Below are positions 12,493 through 57,769 of a stretch of 64,000 nucleotides of DNA, piece by piece. The translations under genes were made by a program, and so were the position numbers. Location: assembly GCA_963665655.1 (NCBI GenBank), contig OY762429.1, forward strand, positions 112,492 through 176,491. Reading direction: 5' to 3'. A model generated the notes under the pieces. That model was not told where the DNA came from. It ran no database searches and saw nothing but the letters and a program-made list of their open reading frames with translations. The stretch's first letter is position 1. Each line of letters starts with the position of its first letter. The DNA is from Terriglobia bacterium. GTDB taxonomy: Bacteria; Acidobacteriota; Terriglobia; Versatilivoradales; Versatilivoraceae.

Positions 12493-12874
12493 GAGCCTTT
12501 GGCAAAATTCCGCAGACAAGGGTATTGTGGATCGGGAGAGGGGACACGGAGTGATAGGGGCAGGTTGGCTCTGTGCCTGAATGGCCACAAAAGGCACAAA
12601 AGCTGGAATCGCCAAGTCTCAAATCTCATTCAGGAATCAGGATTTCCAGAACGCGGTTCTCCGTCGAAAGGCCACAAAAGGCACAAAAACGGGATTGGGC
12701 AAGACTGGGGCCTGATTTTGTGCCTTTTGTGCTTTTTGTGGTTGAGCCGTTCACCCCATTCACTTGGCAGCGGCAGCCTTCCCAGGAGAAGCCAGGGGAG
12801 AGGTGACTCGCGGGGCAAGTCCGCTCTTCTGTTGTTTTACGGAGATGCTCGATTCCGAATTTTGCAAAAGGCTC
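12493..12874 (+). repeat. Family A MITE-like element (copy A1), ~380 bp, 18-nt terminal inverted repeats GAGCCTTTGGCAAAATTC / GAATTTTGCAAAAGGCTC
   Basis: Carries four GGCCACAAAAGGCACAAAA-type boxes in both orientations. Full copy at 57394-57769 (inverted), internal fragment at 28396-28500. No transposase ORF. Confidence 0.7.
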
Positions 12875-25498: not shown

Positions 25499-25730
25499 GA
25501 CCAGAAAGGCCACCAAGGGGGACGGCTCTGCCGCATCGGCACAGGCTGAGGCCTGGCAACCGGGCGTGCGCCGGATCGAGGGGCAAGAGTGATGGAAGGA
25601 GGACCACCCGGGAGCGCGGGCGTCCCGCCCGCCCCAGTCCGGGCGCAGCCCGGGCCGACCGAGACAACCCCGCATGGAGCGGGACACGGCCAAGTGCTGC
25701 CGCCGCTTCGCGGCTCGGGGGGTGCACCCA

Positions 25731-25802
25731 GGGGACGTTGTTGAATTCCTGGAATTCAGAAACCGCTGATCCAATTTATTCCAGTAGTTCAACAACGTCC
25801 CC
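25731..25802 (+). repeat. Palindromic element E1 (GGGGACGTTGTTGAATTCCTGGAAT ... ATTCCAGTAGTTCAACAACGTCCCC)
   Basis: ~24-nt inverted arms around a 22-nt spacer. A second copy (27780-27822) in the same orientation bounds the far side of the low-GC cassette. Confidence 0.7.
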
Positions 25803-26109
25803 TACTCTTCCTCCCACCTGCCAAACTGGTACAGTCCCTGGAATCGGGCGCATGTTGTCGTGCGAAAGCAATCCTCGCTATCATGAATCGACCGTCCGAG
25901 TCGGGGGACTTGGTGATGTCGAGGATGCTTTTGCCCTGGAGGTCCATGTCGAAGATGCGTTGGACCATTGCTCGGCAGGCGGGTCGAGCCCCAGCTTGGG
26001 GCGCTTCTTCGCCCCGCTCTGGACATGGACCCGCTTGTATCCGTAGGGAGCGTAGGCCGACATCCAGAAGCCGCGGGAAGCAATCTACGGAGTCGACAGC
26101 CTTGCCATA

Positions 26110-26298
26110 GTGAACCCGGAGCTACTGGTGGAATGGGACGCGCTAACGCCGCCGGCGCGGCGAGAGCTGAACGCGGCGGTGTTCGACGCCATCGGCCTGA
26201 CCGTCGACGAGCGCGAGGCGGTGTACGCAGGAGTGACGAAGTTGATGGAGAATCGGCGGCCGCGCATAAGGGCAAGCAAGGAGGCAGAAAGATGTTAA
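26110..26298 (+). pseudogene. Remnant 3' end of a DNA methyltransferase-like gene (62 codons)
   Basis: C-terminal block LNAAVFDAIGLTVDEREAVYAGV resembles the ...V.DLYGLT.EE...V motif that ends many N6-adenine MTases (type I HsdM / type IIG / PglX). Upstream region is high-GC but has no long ORF. Its stop overlaps the downstream start (ATGTTAA). Confidence 0.3.
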
Positions 26299-27617
26299 TT
26301 GCCGCACTGCGAGAAGCCCTCGAACACACGACAATTACAGCAGAAGAAAGGATGGAACCTGCGGAAGCAAAGGTCCTACGAAGACAACTAGGAATGGGCA
26401 CAGACCTGACACCAGCAAACTATCGTCGCATATTGGATCTTGAGGAATACCTACCAAATTTCTCAGTCGACATCATTGCGTGGTACAGAATAAACACGCA
26501 GGAGCCGCAAATGGCAAAACTGTCGTCCGAGATCGCCAAACTCCTTGGGATCAAGGAAGGACAGCATATTTTCTCGTGCACATGCGTGCTAATGGGTGGG
26601 CAACCCGCAATAGACGCCACGCACGTAGCAGAAAAAATGATACTGGCAGCCATCAAGTTTGGACCGGAAAAGGCGGAAGCTCTCCTCAACTCAAGAATGT
26701 CAGACCAAACCGTTTCGGTTAATCATTTGCTTCTGGCAGAAGGAGTTACGGTAGCGGAAGAACTCAAAATCGGAAACGACATAAAGATTGTCCCCATCAG
26801 CGAGAAAAACAAGTACATTCTGCCGTTCGACATCCGACATCAATACATCAACCGCCATCGATTTGTTCCGTTCCATAGCAATCTCGAACAATCGGCCATC
26901 ATCATCACTGAGCATTCTCTGACGCCTGCGTTCAAAGTAGTGGAAGAAGGCTACGAAGAAAGCGAGCCGTGGCCTATGGGTGTAATACACACAATCGAAG
27001 AAGATGACGTGAACGCTCCAGAAAGGGCAACGACATCCATTTTGTCGCTTGTCATCAACTCACCCGTGATCGCTATGCGGTCATGGATTTACACCGACCC
27101 TTACGAACCTTTCCGCATAGACAGGGGAAGCCGCGCAGCGGCAAGTTTCCTAGGTGGAAGGCGTGCATATCAATCAGTACAAGCTGGCTTGGATGACCTT
27201 GCGAAATTCCAAGAAATACGAGAAAAACTGCTGTCTGAACCGAACATAGAGAAGAAGCTGAAAACCCCTATCAGATACTGGGTCAAATCCAGAATGGCAG
27301 GCCCTAGCGTTGACGGGGCGATCTACCTCGGCATAGCAATGGAGACCCTTTTCCTCGACAATTCCAGGACGGAGCTGTCATATCGCATGCAAGTTAGAGC
27401 CGCCAAGCTAATAGGCGGGAACATGTCGCAACGCGAGCTAACGAAGAAGCTAGTGAAGAACACATACTCGGTTCGCTCCAGAGCGGCGCATGAAGGCGCA
27501 ATGAAAACCGAGGATCAAGAAGCTATAGAGAAGGGACAAGGTCTGATACGCGATGCTATTCTGAAAATAATCGAGTCGGGTACATACCCCGACTGGAACC
27601 GCTTGGATCTGGAGTGA
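26292..27617 (+). CDS. Uncharacterised 441-aa protein with C-terminal HEPN-like R-x4-H motif; candidate abortive-infection/defence protein (AIPR/Abi-like context)
   Basis: AAGGAGG SD 7 nt before ATG 26292. GC ~48% versus ~65% in flanks. RSRAAHEG motif at 27472-27495 in a predicted all-helical C-terminal region. No Walker A, no PD-(D/E)xK recognised. Confidence 0.7.
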   Translation: MLIAALREALEHTTITAEERMEPAEAKVLRRQLGMGTDLTPANYRRILDLEEYLPNFSVDIIAWYRINTQEPQMAKLSSEIAKLLGIKEGQHIFSCTCVLMGGQPAIDATHVAEKMILAAIKFGPEKAEALLNSRMSDQTVSVNHLLLAEGVTVAEELKIGNDIKIVPISEKNKYILPFDIRHQYINRHRFVPFHSNLEQSAIIITEHSLTPAFKVVEEGYEESEPWPMGVIHTIEEDDVNAPERATTSILSLVINSPVIAMRSWIYTDPYEPFRIDRGSRAAASFLGGRRAYQSVQAGLDDLAKFQEIREKLLSEPNIEKKLKTPIRYWVKSRMAGPSVDGAIYLGIAMETLFLDNSRTELSYRMQVRAAKLIGGNMSQRELTKKLVKNTYSVRSRAAHEGAMKTEDQEAIEKGQGLIRDAILKIIESGTYPDWNRLDLE

Positions 27618-27779
27618 ACTATCCATGACCATCCTCCATACCTACAGCGACCTCAAGTTCACCAAACGCCTGCGCCACGTCCTGGTCTAGGCCCACGGCG
27701 CCCCTCACGGGCCTTACGGCAAGCCTGTCGGGACTGAGCGGAAACACCAACTACACCTACAAGGCGTATTCGGACACCA

Positions 27780-27822
27780 GGGGACGTTGTTGAATTACTG
27801 GAATAACTTGTGCAACGTCCCC
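27780..27822 (+). repeat. Palindromic element E2 (shorter copy of E1)
   Basis: GGGGACGTTGTTGAATTACTGGAATAACTTGTGCAACGTCCCC. First 26 nt nearly identical to E1. Confidence 0.6.
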
Positions 27823-28238
27823 ATTTCCAGTCAGTCAGAAAATCCTATCCTCTGGCAGCGTCGTGATTTCAGGGAGAGCGGCGTAGCCGCGCCAGCACTT
27901 GGCCCCGGGCGTAAGCCCGGGGTCGTATGGGTCCTGCACTGCCCTAGCCGCGTAGGCGGCTACTCGAGAGCCGGGTCTCCAAAACACACGGCCTCCCCAA
28001 AAACCATCGGTTCCCCGGCACCGTTGCCGTTCGATCCAAGTGATGGAGATGGTCAGGCTGTGCCGGTCTATGGTGCGGGCGGGACGCCCGCGCTCCCGGG
28101 TGGCTTCATCCCATGACCGGGCCACGCCAAGGGGACGAAATTGCAGGAGCATTCCGGGGCCGGCTTTTGTTGACGGAGTGTTGGGCATAGCGGGCGTAGG
28201 AGACGGGGCAGATCAATCGAGAAGGACCAACAACTGAA

Positions 28239-28379
28239 CATCGATGCACAGGATAACCAGGACGGGACGCTCCTGCACGAGAAGTTGACTTCGGCGATGA
28301 TCCGGTTCGGGATTGCGGATGCCCAGGAACAGAGGCCAGTCGTTTCCAGAAAAAATCCTGTGCATCCTGTGCATCGATG
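28239..28379 (+). repeat. Family B palindromic MITE-like element, copy B1 (TIR CATCGATGCACAGGAT)
   Basis: Starts CATCGATGCACAGGATAACCAGGACGGGACGCT..., ends ...ATCCTGTGCATCCTGTGCATCGATG. ~85% identical to 50956-51105. Confidence 0.65.
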
Positions 28380-28395
28380 TGAATAAAAATCGAAA

Positions 28396-28500
28396 AGGCC
28401 ACAAGAGGCACAAGAACGGGATTGGACAAGACTGGAGCCTTTTTTGTGCTTTTTGTGCCTTTTGTGGTTGAGTCGTTTGCCCATTCTCCAGGCAGCAGGA
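28396..28500 (+). repeat. Family A MITE, internal fragment (copy A2) abutting B1
   Basis: GGCCACAAGAGGCACAAGAACGGGATTGG...TTTTGTGCTTTTTGTGCCTTTTGTGGTTGAG matches the middle of 12493-12874. Confidence 0.5.
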
Positions 28501-28582
28501 GCTTCCCCAGCCGTTTTCCCTCGAATGATCCGCACGACGGGGCGCGATTCCGGCCAGCCGGCGTCCCTGGGCGAAAGGCGGG

Positions 28583-28939
28583 CTACAGTCCCAGCAGGCG
28601 CGTCAACCAGGCGAAAAACACTCCGGCCGGAACCAGGGTCCCCACTGCGACCACACAAGCCAAAACGGAACTACCCGTTCTTTTCAGGGTCAGAAACGCC
28701 AGCAGCAGTTGGCAGGCGGCGATTCCCAGGGTGGCCACCGTGCCCGCCACGGCGCCATGGGCGCACCAGGGACAATCGGGAGGTCCGGGGCGATGGATAT
28801 CGCAGTGAGCGGCGGCTCCGTCCCAAAGCCAGGTGCAGCCGCACCCGAAGGCCATGCCGCAGAAAGGAATCAGCAGAAGGCCCAGACTGGCCAGGACGGT
28901 CAAGACGACCATCCATTGCGCTCTGTTGAAAGACCTCAT
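28583..28939 (-). CDS. Small cysteine-rich integral membrane protein (DUF2752-like?)
   Basis: Three predicted TM helices and a CGCTW...HCD...CPWCAHG cysteine cluster. Family assignment tentative. Confidence 0.45.
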   Translation of the reverse strand: MRSFNRAQWMVVLTVLASLGLLLIPFCGMAFGCGCTWLWDGAAAHCDIHRPGPPDCPWCAHGAVAGTVATLGIAACQLLLAFLTLKRTGSSVLACVVAVGTLVPAGVFFAWLTRLLGL

Positions 28940-50955: not shown

Positions 50956-51105
50956 CATGGATGGACAGGATGCACAGGATAACCAGGACGGGACGCTGCT
51001 GCACGAGAAGCCGGCTCCGGCAATGATCGTGTGCGGACCTGCGGATGCTCAGGATTACAAGCTGGCCGTTTCAAGAAAAAATCCTGTGCATCCTGTGCAT
51101 CCATG
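50956..51105 (+). repeat. Family B palindromic MITE-like element, copy B2
   Basis: CATGGATGGACAGGATGCACAGGATAACCAGGACGGGACGCTGCTGCACGAGAAG...ATCCTGTGCATCCTGTGCATCCATG. Flanked on both sides by solo family-A TIRs (50918-50943, 51148-51166). Confidence 0.65.
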
Positions 51106-51204
51106 TGAATCAAAACCTGTTCCGAGCGTCCATAAAACCGTTGGCTTTGGAATTTTGCAAAAGGCTCACTGTGATAGCCTATTCAACCGATCGCTGTATG
51201 AGGG

Positions 51205-57393: not shown

Positions 57394-57769
57394 GAGCCTT
57401 TTGCAAAATTCGGAATCGAGCATCTCCATAAAACAACAGAAGAGCGGACTTGCCTCGCGAGTCACCTCTCCCCCGGCTCCTCCTGGGAAGGCTGCCAGGT
57501 GAATGGGGTGAACGGCTCAACCACAAAAAGCACAAAAGGCACAAAATCAGGCCCCAGTCTTACCCAATCCCGTTTTTGTGCCTCTTGTGGCCGTTCGAAG
57601 GAGAACCGCGTTCTGGAAATCCTGATTCCTGAATGAGATTGGAGACCTGGCGATTCCAGCTATTGTGCCTCTTGTGGCCACTCAGGCACAGAGCGGCCCT
57701 GCCCCTGGAATTTCCTGTCCCCTCTCCCGATCCACTAAACCCTTGTCTGCGGAATTTTGCAAAAGGCTC
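57394..57769 (-). repeat. Family A MITE (copy A3, inverted relative to A1), TIR GAGCCTTTTGCAAAATTC
   Basis: ~90% identical to the reverse complement of 12493-12874, including the internal GGCCACAAAAGGCACAAAA boxes. Confidence 0.7.

Follow-up and report, generated by a model that had tools for sequence, protein, structure and literature searches.

We analysed a 64,000-nucleotide (nt) stretch of the genome of a Terriglobia bacterium (GenBank assembly GCA_963665655.1, contig OY762429.1, positions 112,492 to 176,491 of the forward strand; the whole stretch is called the window below) and concentrated on one gene in it, which encodes a protein of 441 amino acids (aa) with a predicted C-terminal HEPN domain. 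The ATG at 26292 (+) opens a product without internal stop inside a surrounding open frame of 25968 to 27617 (+), and it was taken as the true start because the Shine-Dalgarno motif AAGGAGG lies 8 nt upstream and the homologs align from M1. A preliminary description of the locus, made from the sequence alone, had reported a 441-aa open reading frame (ORF) of low guanine plus cytosine (GC) content, and this was borne out: the 441 codons are uninterrupted, the GC content is 0.49 versus 0.61 in the remaining window, and the GC content at third codon positions is 0.54 versus 0.76 to 0.81 in the flanking kbl and groEL genes. The low value is not special to the window gene, since in 17 of the 18 loci examined, including those inside intact operons of the type III restriction-modification (R-M) genes Mod and Res, the family gene was lower in GC than its surroundings, and low GC is therefore a family trait. 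The flanks consist of housekeeping genes, named from reading their translations, with an aminotransferase gene and a Kbl/BioF-like gene upstream on the minus strand and GroEL/GroES and GcvP downstream. A weak match to the Hammerhead_3 ribozyme within the coding region (27034-27089, minus strand; 21 bits, gathering score 48.5, E 0.42) was judged to be a chance match. The positions of the main features are collected in Table 1.

The assignment of the C-terminal region to the HEPN superfamily is well supported by structure prediction. The AlphaFold2 model was built on an alignment of 109 full-length family members with a mean identity of ~22% to the window protein and reached a predicted local distance difference test (pLDDT) score of 88.7 and a predicted template modelling score of 0.87; an earlier AlphaFold run on 4 sequences gave a pLDDT of 38.5 and was discarded. 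Residues 1 to ~290 of the model form a mixed alpha/beta region in which DSSP assigns 13 strands, and the C-terminal ~140 residues are all-helical, in agreement with the all-helical stretch of ~150 residues that had been described from the sequence. Residues ~300-441 contain the HEPN bundle, with the four-helix up-down core and the insert between helices 2 and 3 (H2 and H3) that define the superfamily. In this model, the R395-x4-H400 motif falls at the C-terminal end of the helix 378-401, which is followed by a loop (402-407) and a helix (408-429). Canonical HEPN domains carry R-x4-6-H where helix 3 ends or passes into the H3-H4 loop, a polar residue after the arginine which is typically N, D or H, and a conserved acidic residue in helix 2 which is typically part of E-x3-[KR], and they often have an insert between H2 and H3 (PMC3710099). 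The model fits this layout: the polar residue is S396 in all 109 members, serine being polar though not the commonest choice, and the candidate for the acidic residue is E351, again in all 109 members, in the helix preceding the insert, with leucine rather than K or R at the +4 position. In the structural comparison, HepT was among the closest matches to the HEPN core and Csx1, AbiV and Las1 were found lower in the list, while a Foldseek search of the model against PDB and BFVD gave no significant match.

The motif VRSRAAHEG (residues 394-402) had been proposed as the catalytic HEPN motif, and the proposal held when conservation and structure were considered together. A bare R-x4-H is uninformative by itself and shows no excess over chance, as it occurs three times in the window protein (positions 7, 190 and 395) and shuffled sequences contain it at a mean of 0.65 per protein, with a probability of 0.50 of at least one occurrence. 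R395/H400 is distinguished by its conservation and its structural position, being the only one of the three that is conserved (R395 in 108 and H400 in 109 of the 109 aligned members) and lying at the end of helix 3. Residues E351, Y392, S396 and H400 are invariant in the alignment, and R395, R381, D341 and G402 are nearly so. Two signature motifs of the family, "IDLGIAxExLYL" and "YxxRSxAVHxG", were derived from the same alignment.

For the N-terminal ~290 aa, no family model and no convincing solved structure was matched, so that the earlier statement that this part has no recognisable family stands, as does the statement that a Walker motif is lacking, with no P-loop found on inspection of the sequence and no match to an ATPase domain. 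The sole match in a sequence-profile search of PDB was non-significant (E=0.3) and pairs aa 49-111 (about 26436-26624) with the N-terminal region of the type I R-M methyltransferase subunit HsdM (PDB 3lkd), which is curious given the R-M linkage described below, yet is not evidence.

The protein belongs to a very large family. A word-indexed search returned only 4 relatives (100%, 83%, 79% and 25% identity), from which the protein appeared to be an orphan, and this was overturned by an exhaustive profile search, in which 5,656 representatives of 50% identity clusters were recovered (E<=1e-3), 176 of them even at E<=1e-30. Members are mostly 430-480 aa long and aligned over most of their length. 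The family hidden Markov model (HMM) matched the window protein with E=1.7e-92. RefSeq already names members of the family "HEPN domain-containing protein", and among the plasmid genes so named three near-full-length ones were matched by the family HMM with E 1e-38 to 1e-49 and a 122-aa Aminobacter plasmid fragment with E 4e-26. The novelty suggested in the preliminary description thus does not apply to the protein as such, and its suggestion of AIPR (PF10592) similarity failed as well, Pfam giving no family for the protein (E<=1) or for any of the 109 relatives. Membership of AIPR, ApeA, PrrC/RloC, AbiD/F/J/U/V and PD-T4/T7 was ruled out at the HMM level, there being no Pfam, NCBIfam or PADLOC match, and 10 diverse family members gave no library match at E<=10. 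In 89 of the 109 members, the HEPN region (aa 346-433 in the window protein) matched the C-terminal part of the phage family phrog_28161, with a best E of 1.6e-11 and an E of 1.3e-4 for the window protein, the match being confined to the HEPN half. Two metagenome scans gave no relatives. The concept of an R-M-embedded HEPN effector was already known in 2013, and assigning the protein to HEPN is in itself not new. The family-level picture is: it comprises the definition of the family by the invariant E and Y-x2-R-S-x-A-V-H-x-G together with a ~290-aa N-terminal fold without solved match, the size of the family, its embedding between type III Mod and Res, and the existence of orphaned copies which are still under selection.

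The neighbourhoods of family members were surveyed in a Poribacteria-rich subfamily, for which 43 loci were taken from genomes representing their species; some of these genomes belong to Binatia, Dehalococcoidia, Gammaproteobacteria and Gemmatimonadaceae. Among the two nearest ORFs on each side in 31 loci there were 18 DNA methylases, 13 of them with the domain specific to type III Mod, and 9 ResIII proteins. A tblastn search within 10 kb in 34 loci found Mod in 23, Res in 22 and both in 20, counts which overstate the number of independent events, the loci not being phylogenetically independent. Mod and Res typically flank the family gene, and the end of Mod usually lies ~20-170 nt upstream on the same strand; the order at a representative locus is SDR, Mod, family gene, Res and PhyH. 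Around other members, a recurrent islet of HicA, DUF433-DUF5615, DUF2335 and an HTH-M78 peptidase with DUF4411 was found, one member lies in a Replic_Relax/HTH_17/RHH mobile element, and plasmid members stand next to integrases, HipA and a JetABC cluster resembling Wadjet that has an annotated Abi gene. Many members have no adjacent R-M genes. The family as a whole is strongly linked to R-M loci and to defence or toxin-antitoxin islets.

In six of the Poribacteria loci (L008, L011, L014, L018, L022 and L024), a conserved ORF of ~240 aa (for example L011:11467-12192) stands between the HEPN-family gene and Res, and it shows a weak, sub-threshold likeness to IS200/Y1 transposases.

In the window, the gene directly follows a methyltransferase remnant. 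The start codon overlaps the stop of this remnant in ATGTTAA (stop at 26298), so that the coupling to a methyltransferase-like remnant noted earlier is real, and the stub, whose tail encodes "...RELNAAVFDAIGLTVDEREAVYAGVTKLMENRR...", was recognised as the C-terminus of an Eco57I/MmeI-type methyltransferase. This identity was reached solely through an intermediate, P0168, to which the tail is 54% identical (tblastn, 9e-22), with a further alignment of 48 aa at 42% identity to the C-terminal tip of a 989-aa DNA methyltransferase from a Thermococcus plasmid which has Eco57I, MmeI_Mtase and N6_Mtase domains; a Thermus relative of the latter adjoins a PLD-SNF2 helicase gene. Inside the remnant there is an NCBI-annotated ORF of 56 aa, at 26128-26298 by our own arithmetic. 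A type III Mod as the lost partner in the window was rejected, as the tails of the Poribacteria Mod proteins do not match the stub. On the other side of the remnant, a large serine recombinase survives as a frameshifted scrap, with a best match to an intact 582-aa recombinase (Resolvase, Recombinase and Zn_ribbon_recom domains) of 62% identity over 34 aa plus 29% over 56 aa in a second frame (tblastn). Neither of these two upstream fragments had a direct Pfam match or a plasmid match by tblastn. The GC content of the scraps is 0.61-0.65 (0.645 for the methyltransferase remnant), which is host-like and unlike that of the HEPN gene. The description of the setting as a typical R-M locus therefore holds across the family and not in the window itself, where ~80 codons of the methyltransferase are left among housekeeping flanks.

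The contigs that carry the two reference proteins gave observations of their own. The intact recombinase (L035:11587-13332, Dehalococcoidia) stands right after a family member, with a leucine-rich repeat protein beyond it. On the P0168 contig (L050:692-1081 and 1577-2257), the methyltransferase tail is followed by a small 84-aa ORF and then by a TIR-domain gene (TIR_2, E 1.4e-17), and different defence effectors may have been swapped into a comparable position downstream of an Eco57I-type methyltransferase.

The gene and the two scraps form an islet of ~2 kb which is bracketed by patchy inverted repeats. Each arm holds a copy of the Rfam motif Acido-Lenti-1, for which reports are confined to Acidobacteria and Lentisphaerae and which, with the GC content, points to an acidobacterial host; the right copy passes the gathering score (46.3 bits, cutoff 37), the left one is degraded (20 bits), and the two are inverted and both oriented toward the HEPN gene. 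The motif is absent beside the homologs in L001 and L002, indicating no tie to the gene, and convergent Acido-Lenti-1 RNA as an RNA antitoxin was rejected on the same ground. The 64 kb contain a 26-nt repeat, AGGGGACGTTGTTGAATTNCTGGAAT, in exactly three copies (0 expected), all at the edges of the islet; the copies could have served the dead serine recombinase as att or inversion sites, or could be the ends of an element resembling a miniature inverted-repeat transposable element (MITE). Between the islet and groEL, the spacer at 28243-28510 contains dispersed repeats of ~120-150 nt with 84-86% identity which resemble repetitive extragenic palindromic or MITE sequences and have further copies on both strands of the window (50969-51115, 12667-12785, 57491-57595 and 2892-2924), and a 118-aa ORF (28583-28939, minus strand) encodes a hydrophobic, Cys-rich product which may be a small membrane protein.

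Table 1. Positions in the window of the HEPN gene, its predicted functional elements and the surrounding remnants and repeats
Feature	Position	Strand	Details and basis
Left inverted-repeat arm	25589..25803	.	Degraded Acido-Lenti-1 (25670-25715, +) and 26-nt repeat hairpin (25730-25755 / 25778-25803)
26-nt repeat copies	25730-25755; 25778-25803; 27779-27804	+; -; +	Left-edge hairpin (first two copies), single copy at right edge
Large serine recombinase scrap, frameshifted	25891..26081	-	Residues ~189-252 of 582, catalytic domain missing; tblastn
Eco57I/MmeI-type N6-adenine DNA methyltransferase remnant	26056..26298	+	Last ~80 codons; stop overlaps HEPN gene start (ATGTTAA)
Shine-Dalgarno AAGGAGG	26278..26284	+	8 nt ahead of ATG; sequence
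Intact 441-aa gene	26292..27617	+	N-terminal alpha/beta domain (aa 1-~290) and predicted C-terminal HEPN (aa ~300-441); ORF, translation, AlphaFold2 model, dN/dS, family HMM
HEPN domain (predicted), aa ~300-441	27189..27614	+	Proposed helices: H1 317-336, H2 340-354 (with E351), insert helix 362-374, H3 378-401, H4 408-429
E351, invariant acidic residue	27342..27344	+	Part of the "IDLGIAxExLYL" helix (helix 2 of the predicted HEPN bundle); 109/109
Predicted catalytic motif R395-S-R-A-A-H400	27474..27491	+	R395 at 27474-27476, H400 at 27489-27491; family consensus Y-x2-R-S-x-A-V-H-x-G; 109-member alignment
Right inverted-repeat arm	27777..28117	.	26-nt repeat (27779-27804) and Acido-Lenti-1 (27877-27922, -)

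The two closest homologs, 79% and 83% identical (L001 and L004), and the window copy lie in three unrelated neighbourhoods. The neighbours in L001 are an ABC transporter, DUF1800/DUF1501 and a pyridoxal phosphate-dependent decarboxylase, with a tRNA gene ~390 nt upstream, and in L004 a tRNA fragment lies downstream of the homolog. No methyltransferase was found near either of them, so that the methyltransferase and defence genes which had been anticipated around homologs were seen in the family (in its R-M loci as well as its defence and toxin-antitoxin islets) and not at its members nearest to the window copy. By blastn alignment boundaries, the DNA similarity between the window and the homolog loci covers the gene, ~26 nt upstream (from 26266) and <=90 nt downstream. 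An integron cassette was considered since the shared DNA amounts to the gene with short flanks, and it was rejected, as inspection of the boundaries revealed no attC-like site or GTTRRRY core. The pairwise ratio of nonsynonymous to synonymous substitution rates (dN/dS) among the window copy and these two homologs is 0.31-0.35 in all three comparisons, with no disruptions, and 0.27-0.29 in the N-terminal half. Because the similarity is limited to the gene and dN/dS is 0.31-0.35, the gene can be said to move as a single unit, and selection keeps it without an R-M partner.

Taken together, the protein is probably a single-polypeptide conflict or defence effector, namely a latent, infection-triggered HEPN endoribonuclease, and in the window it probably works autonomously, because it was kept intact by selection while the methyltransferase and the recombinase decayed. 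Based on established HEPN biology, we infer that the C-terminal domain would act as a metal-independent endoribonuclease which depends on the arginine and the histidine of its motif, and that the protein would dimerise, as other HEPN enzymes do, with the two R-x4-H motifs forming one composite active site. The nuclease would cleave cellular RNA, such as tRNA anticodon loops or mRNA, and leave 2',3'-cyclic phosphate ends. The ~290-aa alpha/beta domain is a candidate sensor that may hold the nuclease latent until an infection-linked cue appears, upon which its release would result in growth arrest or abortive infection. The repeated position of the module directly downstream of a DNA methyltransferase gene, which is clearest between type III Mod and Res, points to a defence layer that backs up restriction. 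On its arrival, by mobile DNA, the copy in the window would have had a serine recombinase and a methyltransferase of the Eco57I type as neighbours, of which scraps are left today.

Several observations weigh against this interpretation. The near-invariant R329 of the family is a tyrosine in the window clade, with an arginine at 328 instead, and the dN/dS of the HEPN half, 0.44-0.51, indicates moderate constraint only. Neither the window copy nor either of its two nearest homologs has an intact R-M partner, all three lie among housekeeping genes, and the link to R-M genes was counted in one Poribacteria-rich subfamily. The promoter search of the window gene gave nothing beyond consensus-level matches. 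Pfam and PADLOC had no match for the window protein even at E<=1, nor had Pfam, NCBIfam and PADLOC any for the 109 relatives (E<=0.01), and, the C-terminal phrog_28161 match aside, phage genome records and a viral-contig scan yielded no relative.

Other explanations were compared with the autonomous defence effector. The protein could be an obligate guard of an R-M system in strict analogy to PrrC, silenced by its cognate methyltransferase or restriction complex and firing once that complex is put out of action by an anti-restriction factor from a phage; the window copy would then be an orphan, non-functional or constitutively silent, and heading for decay. Such a guard would fit the tight co-directional order Mod-gene-Res at 20 of the 34 loci, where the genes overlap or are ~20-170 nt apart, as well as the overlap of the window start codon with the methyltransferase stop, and it has a published precedent in PrrC, but many members have no adjacent R-M genes, purifying selection acts on the window clade, whose three neighbourhoods are R-M-less, and the partner type differs by subfamily (type III Mod or Eco57I-type), which argues against a specific protein-protein dependency. 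We thus regard an obligate guard as rather unlikely. Since the type of the partner methyltransferase varies, many members are R-M-less and solo copies are under purifying selection, an autonomous mode like that of ApeA is likelier for the window copy. It is likewise unlikely that the gene is a selfish addiction toxin, which would stabilise a mobile element or R-M cassette by post-segregational killing without phage sensing, its antitoxin being the N-terminal domain or an unrecognised one. HEPN domains are common among the toxins of toxin-antitoxin systems, HepT was one of the closest structural matches, toxin-antitoxin genes (HicA, DUF433/DUF5615 and HipA) are plentiful nearby and the gene is found in mobile-element contexts. 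Against these points, there is no conserved adjacent small antitoxin gene or minimal nucleotidyltransferase (MNT) partner, the neighbours vary by context, and the gene persists alone after the decay of its element, with nothing left to stabilise.

The two remaining explanations concern the loss of activity or of function. A non-nucleolytic HEPN, serving as an RNA- or nucleotide-binding or regulatory module in the manner of MtlR and the nucleotidyltransferase-associated HEPN proteins, for example as an R-M accessory subunit, is quite improbable, because non-catalytic HEPN domains typically lose R-x4-6-H (PMC3710099), whereas here the arginine, the polar residue following it, the histidine and the upstream glutamate are essentially invariant over 109 highly divergent sequences. 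The gene scraps and repeats all around and the foreign composition of the gene could also be taken to mean that it is a functionless leftover, the last gene of a dead island that is not yet degraded, but the intact ORF of 441 codons with a strong Shine-Dalgarno motif, a dN/dS of ~0.33 in all three pairs and the retention of all catalytic residues make this highly improbable.

HEPN ribonucleases are recurrent effectors of bacterial immunity, as in Cas13, Csm6, PrrC, ApeA and DARNA. New biology lies in how each HEPN effector senses infection and thus in the sensor domains. The family described here is abundant and is not covered by Pfam, NCBIfam or PADLOC, its N-terminal fold is predicted with confidence and lacks a solved counterpart, and the order Mod, family gene and Res in type III operons provides an unusually clear genomic signature. 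If the proposed role is correct, the logic of restriction first and RNA suicide second, whose experimental basis so far is mainly the type I-linked PrrC, would be extended to type III and type IIG systems. We also considered, as a tentative and somewhat doubtful proposal, that the protein is the first member to be recognised of a large (>5,000 clusters) and experimentally untouched family of defence RNases in which a new-fold N-terminal domain would either guard the adjacent type III/IIG R-M enzyme, as PrrC does, or bind a new infection-derived ligand, with the orphaned copies showing a guard that outlives its R-M partner. For annotation, the lesson is that a defence gene can outlive its mobile element in a housekeeping neighbourhood.

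Among known systems, ApeA has a ~300-aa non-catalytic N-terminal region and a C-terminal HEPN domain with the catalytic R and H on helix 3, and it is an autonomous abortive-infection effector, a single-gene tRNA anticodon nuclease that forms doughnut-shaped oligomers and is sometimes embedded in R-M operons (PMC3710099; 10.64898/2026.01.26.701840). The window protein is like it in being a single polypeptide with an N-terminal region followed by a C-terminal HEPN domain, and in both the closest minimal HEPN relative is HepT. ApeA differs in its size of ~580 aa, in its three-domain, predominantly helical architecture, and in its split, insertion-rich HEPN domain of ~250 aa, compared with the 441 aa, alpha/beta N-terminal region and compact HEPN domain of ~140 aa of the window protein. 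No Pfam or PADLOC model of ApeA matched the window protein (E<=1) or the 109 relatives (E<=0.01); Pfam presumably holds an Apea-like HEPN model. HepT is a stand-alone domain of ~130 aa with an MNT antitoxin gene, whereas the HEPN domain here shares one polypeptide with a 290-aa domain, and neither the window nor the homolog loci have an MNT gene next to the family gene. No PADLOC or Pfam model of the AbiA C-terminal domain, AbiV, AbiU2, AbiJ, AbiD/F or DARNA/PD-T7-3 was matched, and AbiA, with a reverse transcriptase and HEPN, and DARNA, with an N-terminal HEPN and a C-terminal helical domain, are both unlike the window protein.

PrrC of EcoprrI is a HEPN anticodon nuclease inside a type Ic R-M locus and provides a latent second line of defence (PMC3710099). 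The likeness to it would lie in the insertion of a predicted HEPN RNase gene in an R-M operon, seen in the subfamily loci (Mod in 23 and both genes in 20 of 34), reduced to a methyltransferase stub in the window and absent at the closest homologs, and in the proposed position of a second line behind restriction. PrrC differs by its N-terminal ABC-ATPase and its type I hsd locus, while the present family has no NTPase motif, another N-terminal fold and a position between type III Mod and Res or after an Eco57I-type methyltransferase, with many members R-M-less. In general, membership of both systems fails on the lack of a model match, on size, on fold and on the absence of an ATPase, and the closest predicted functional analogue of the window protein is ApeA, while the genomic logic of its family is that of PrrC.

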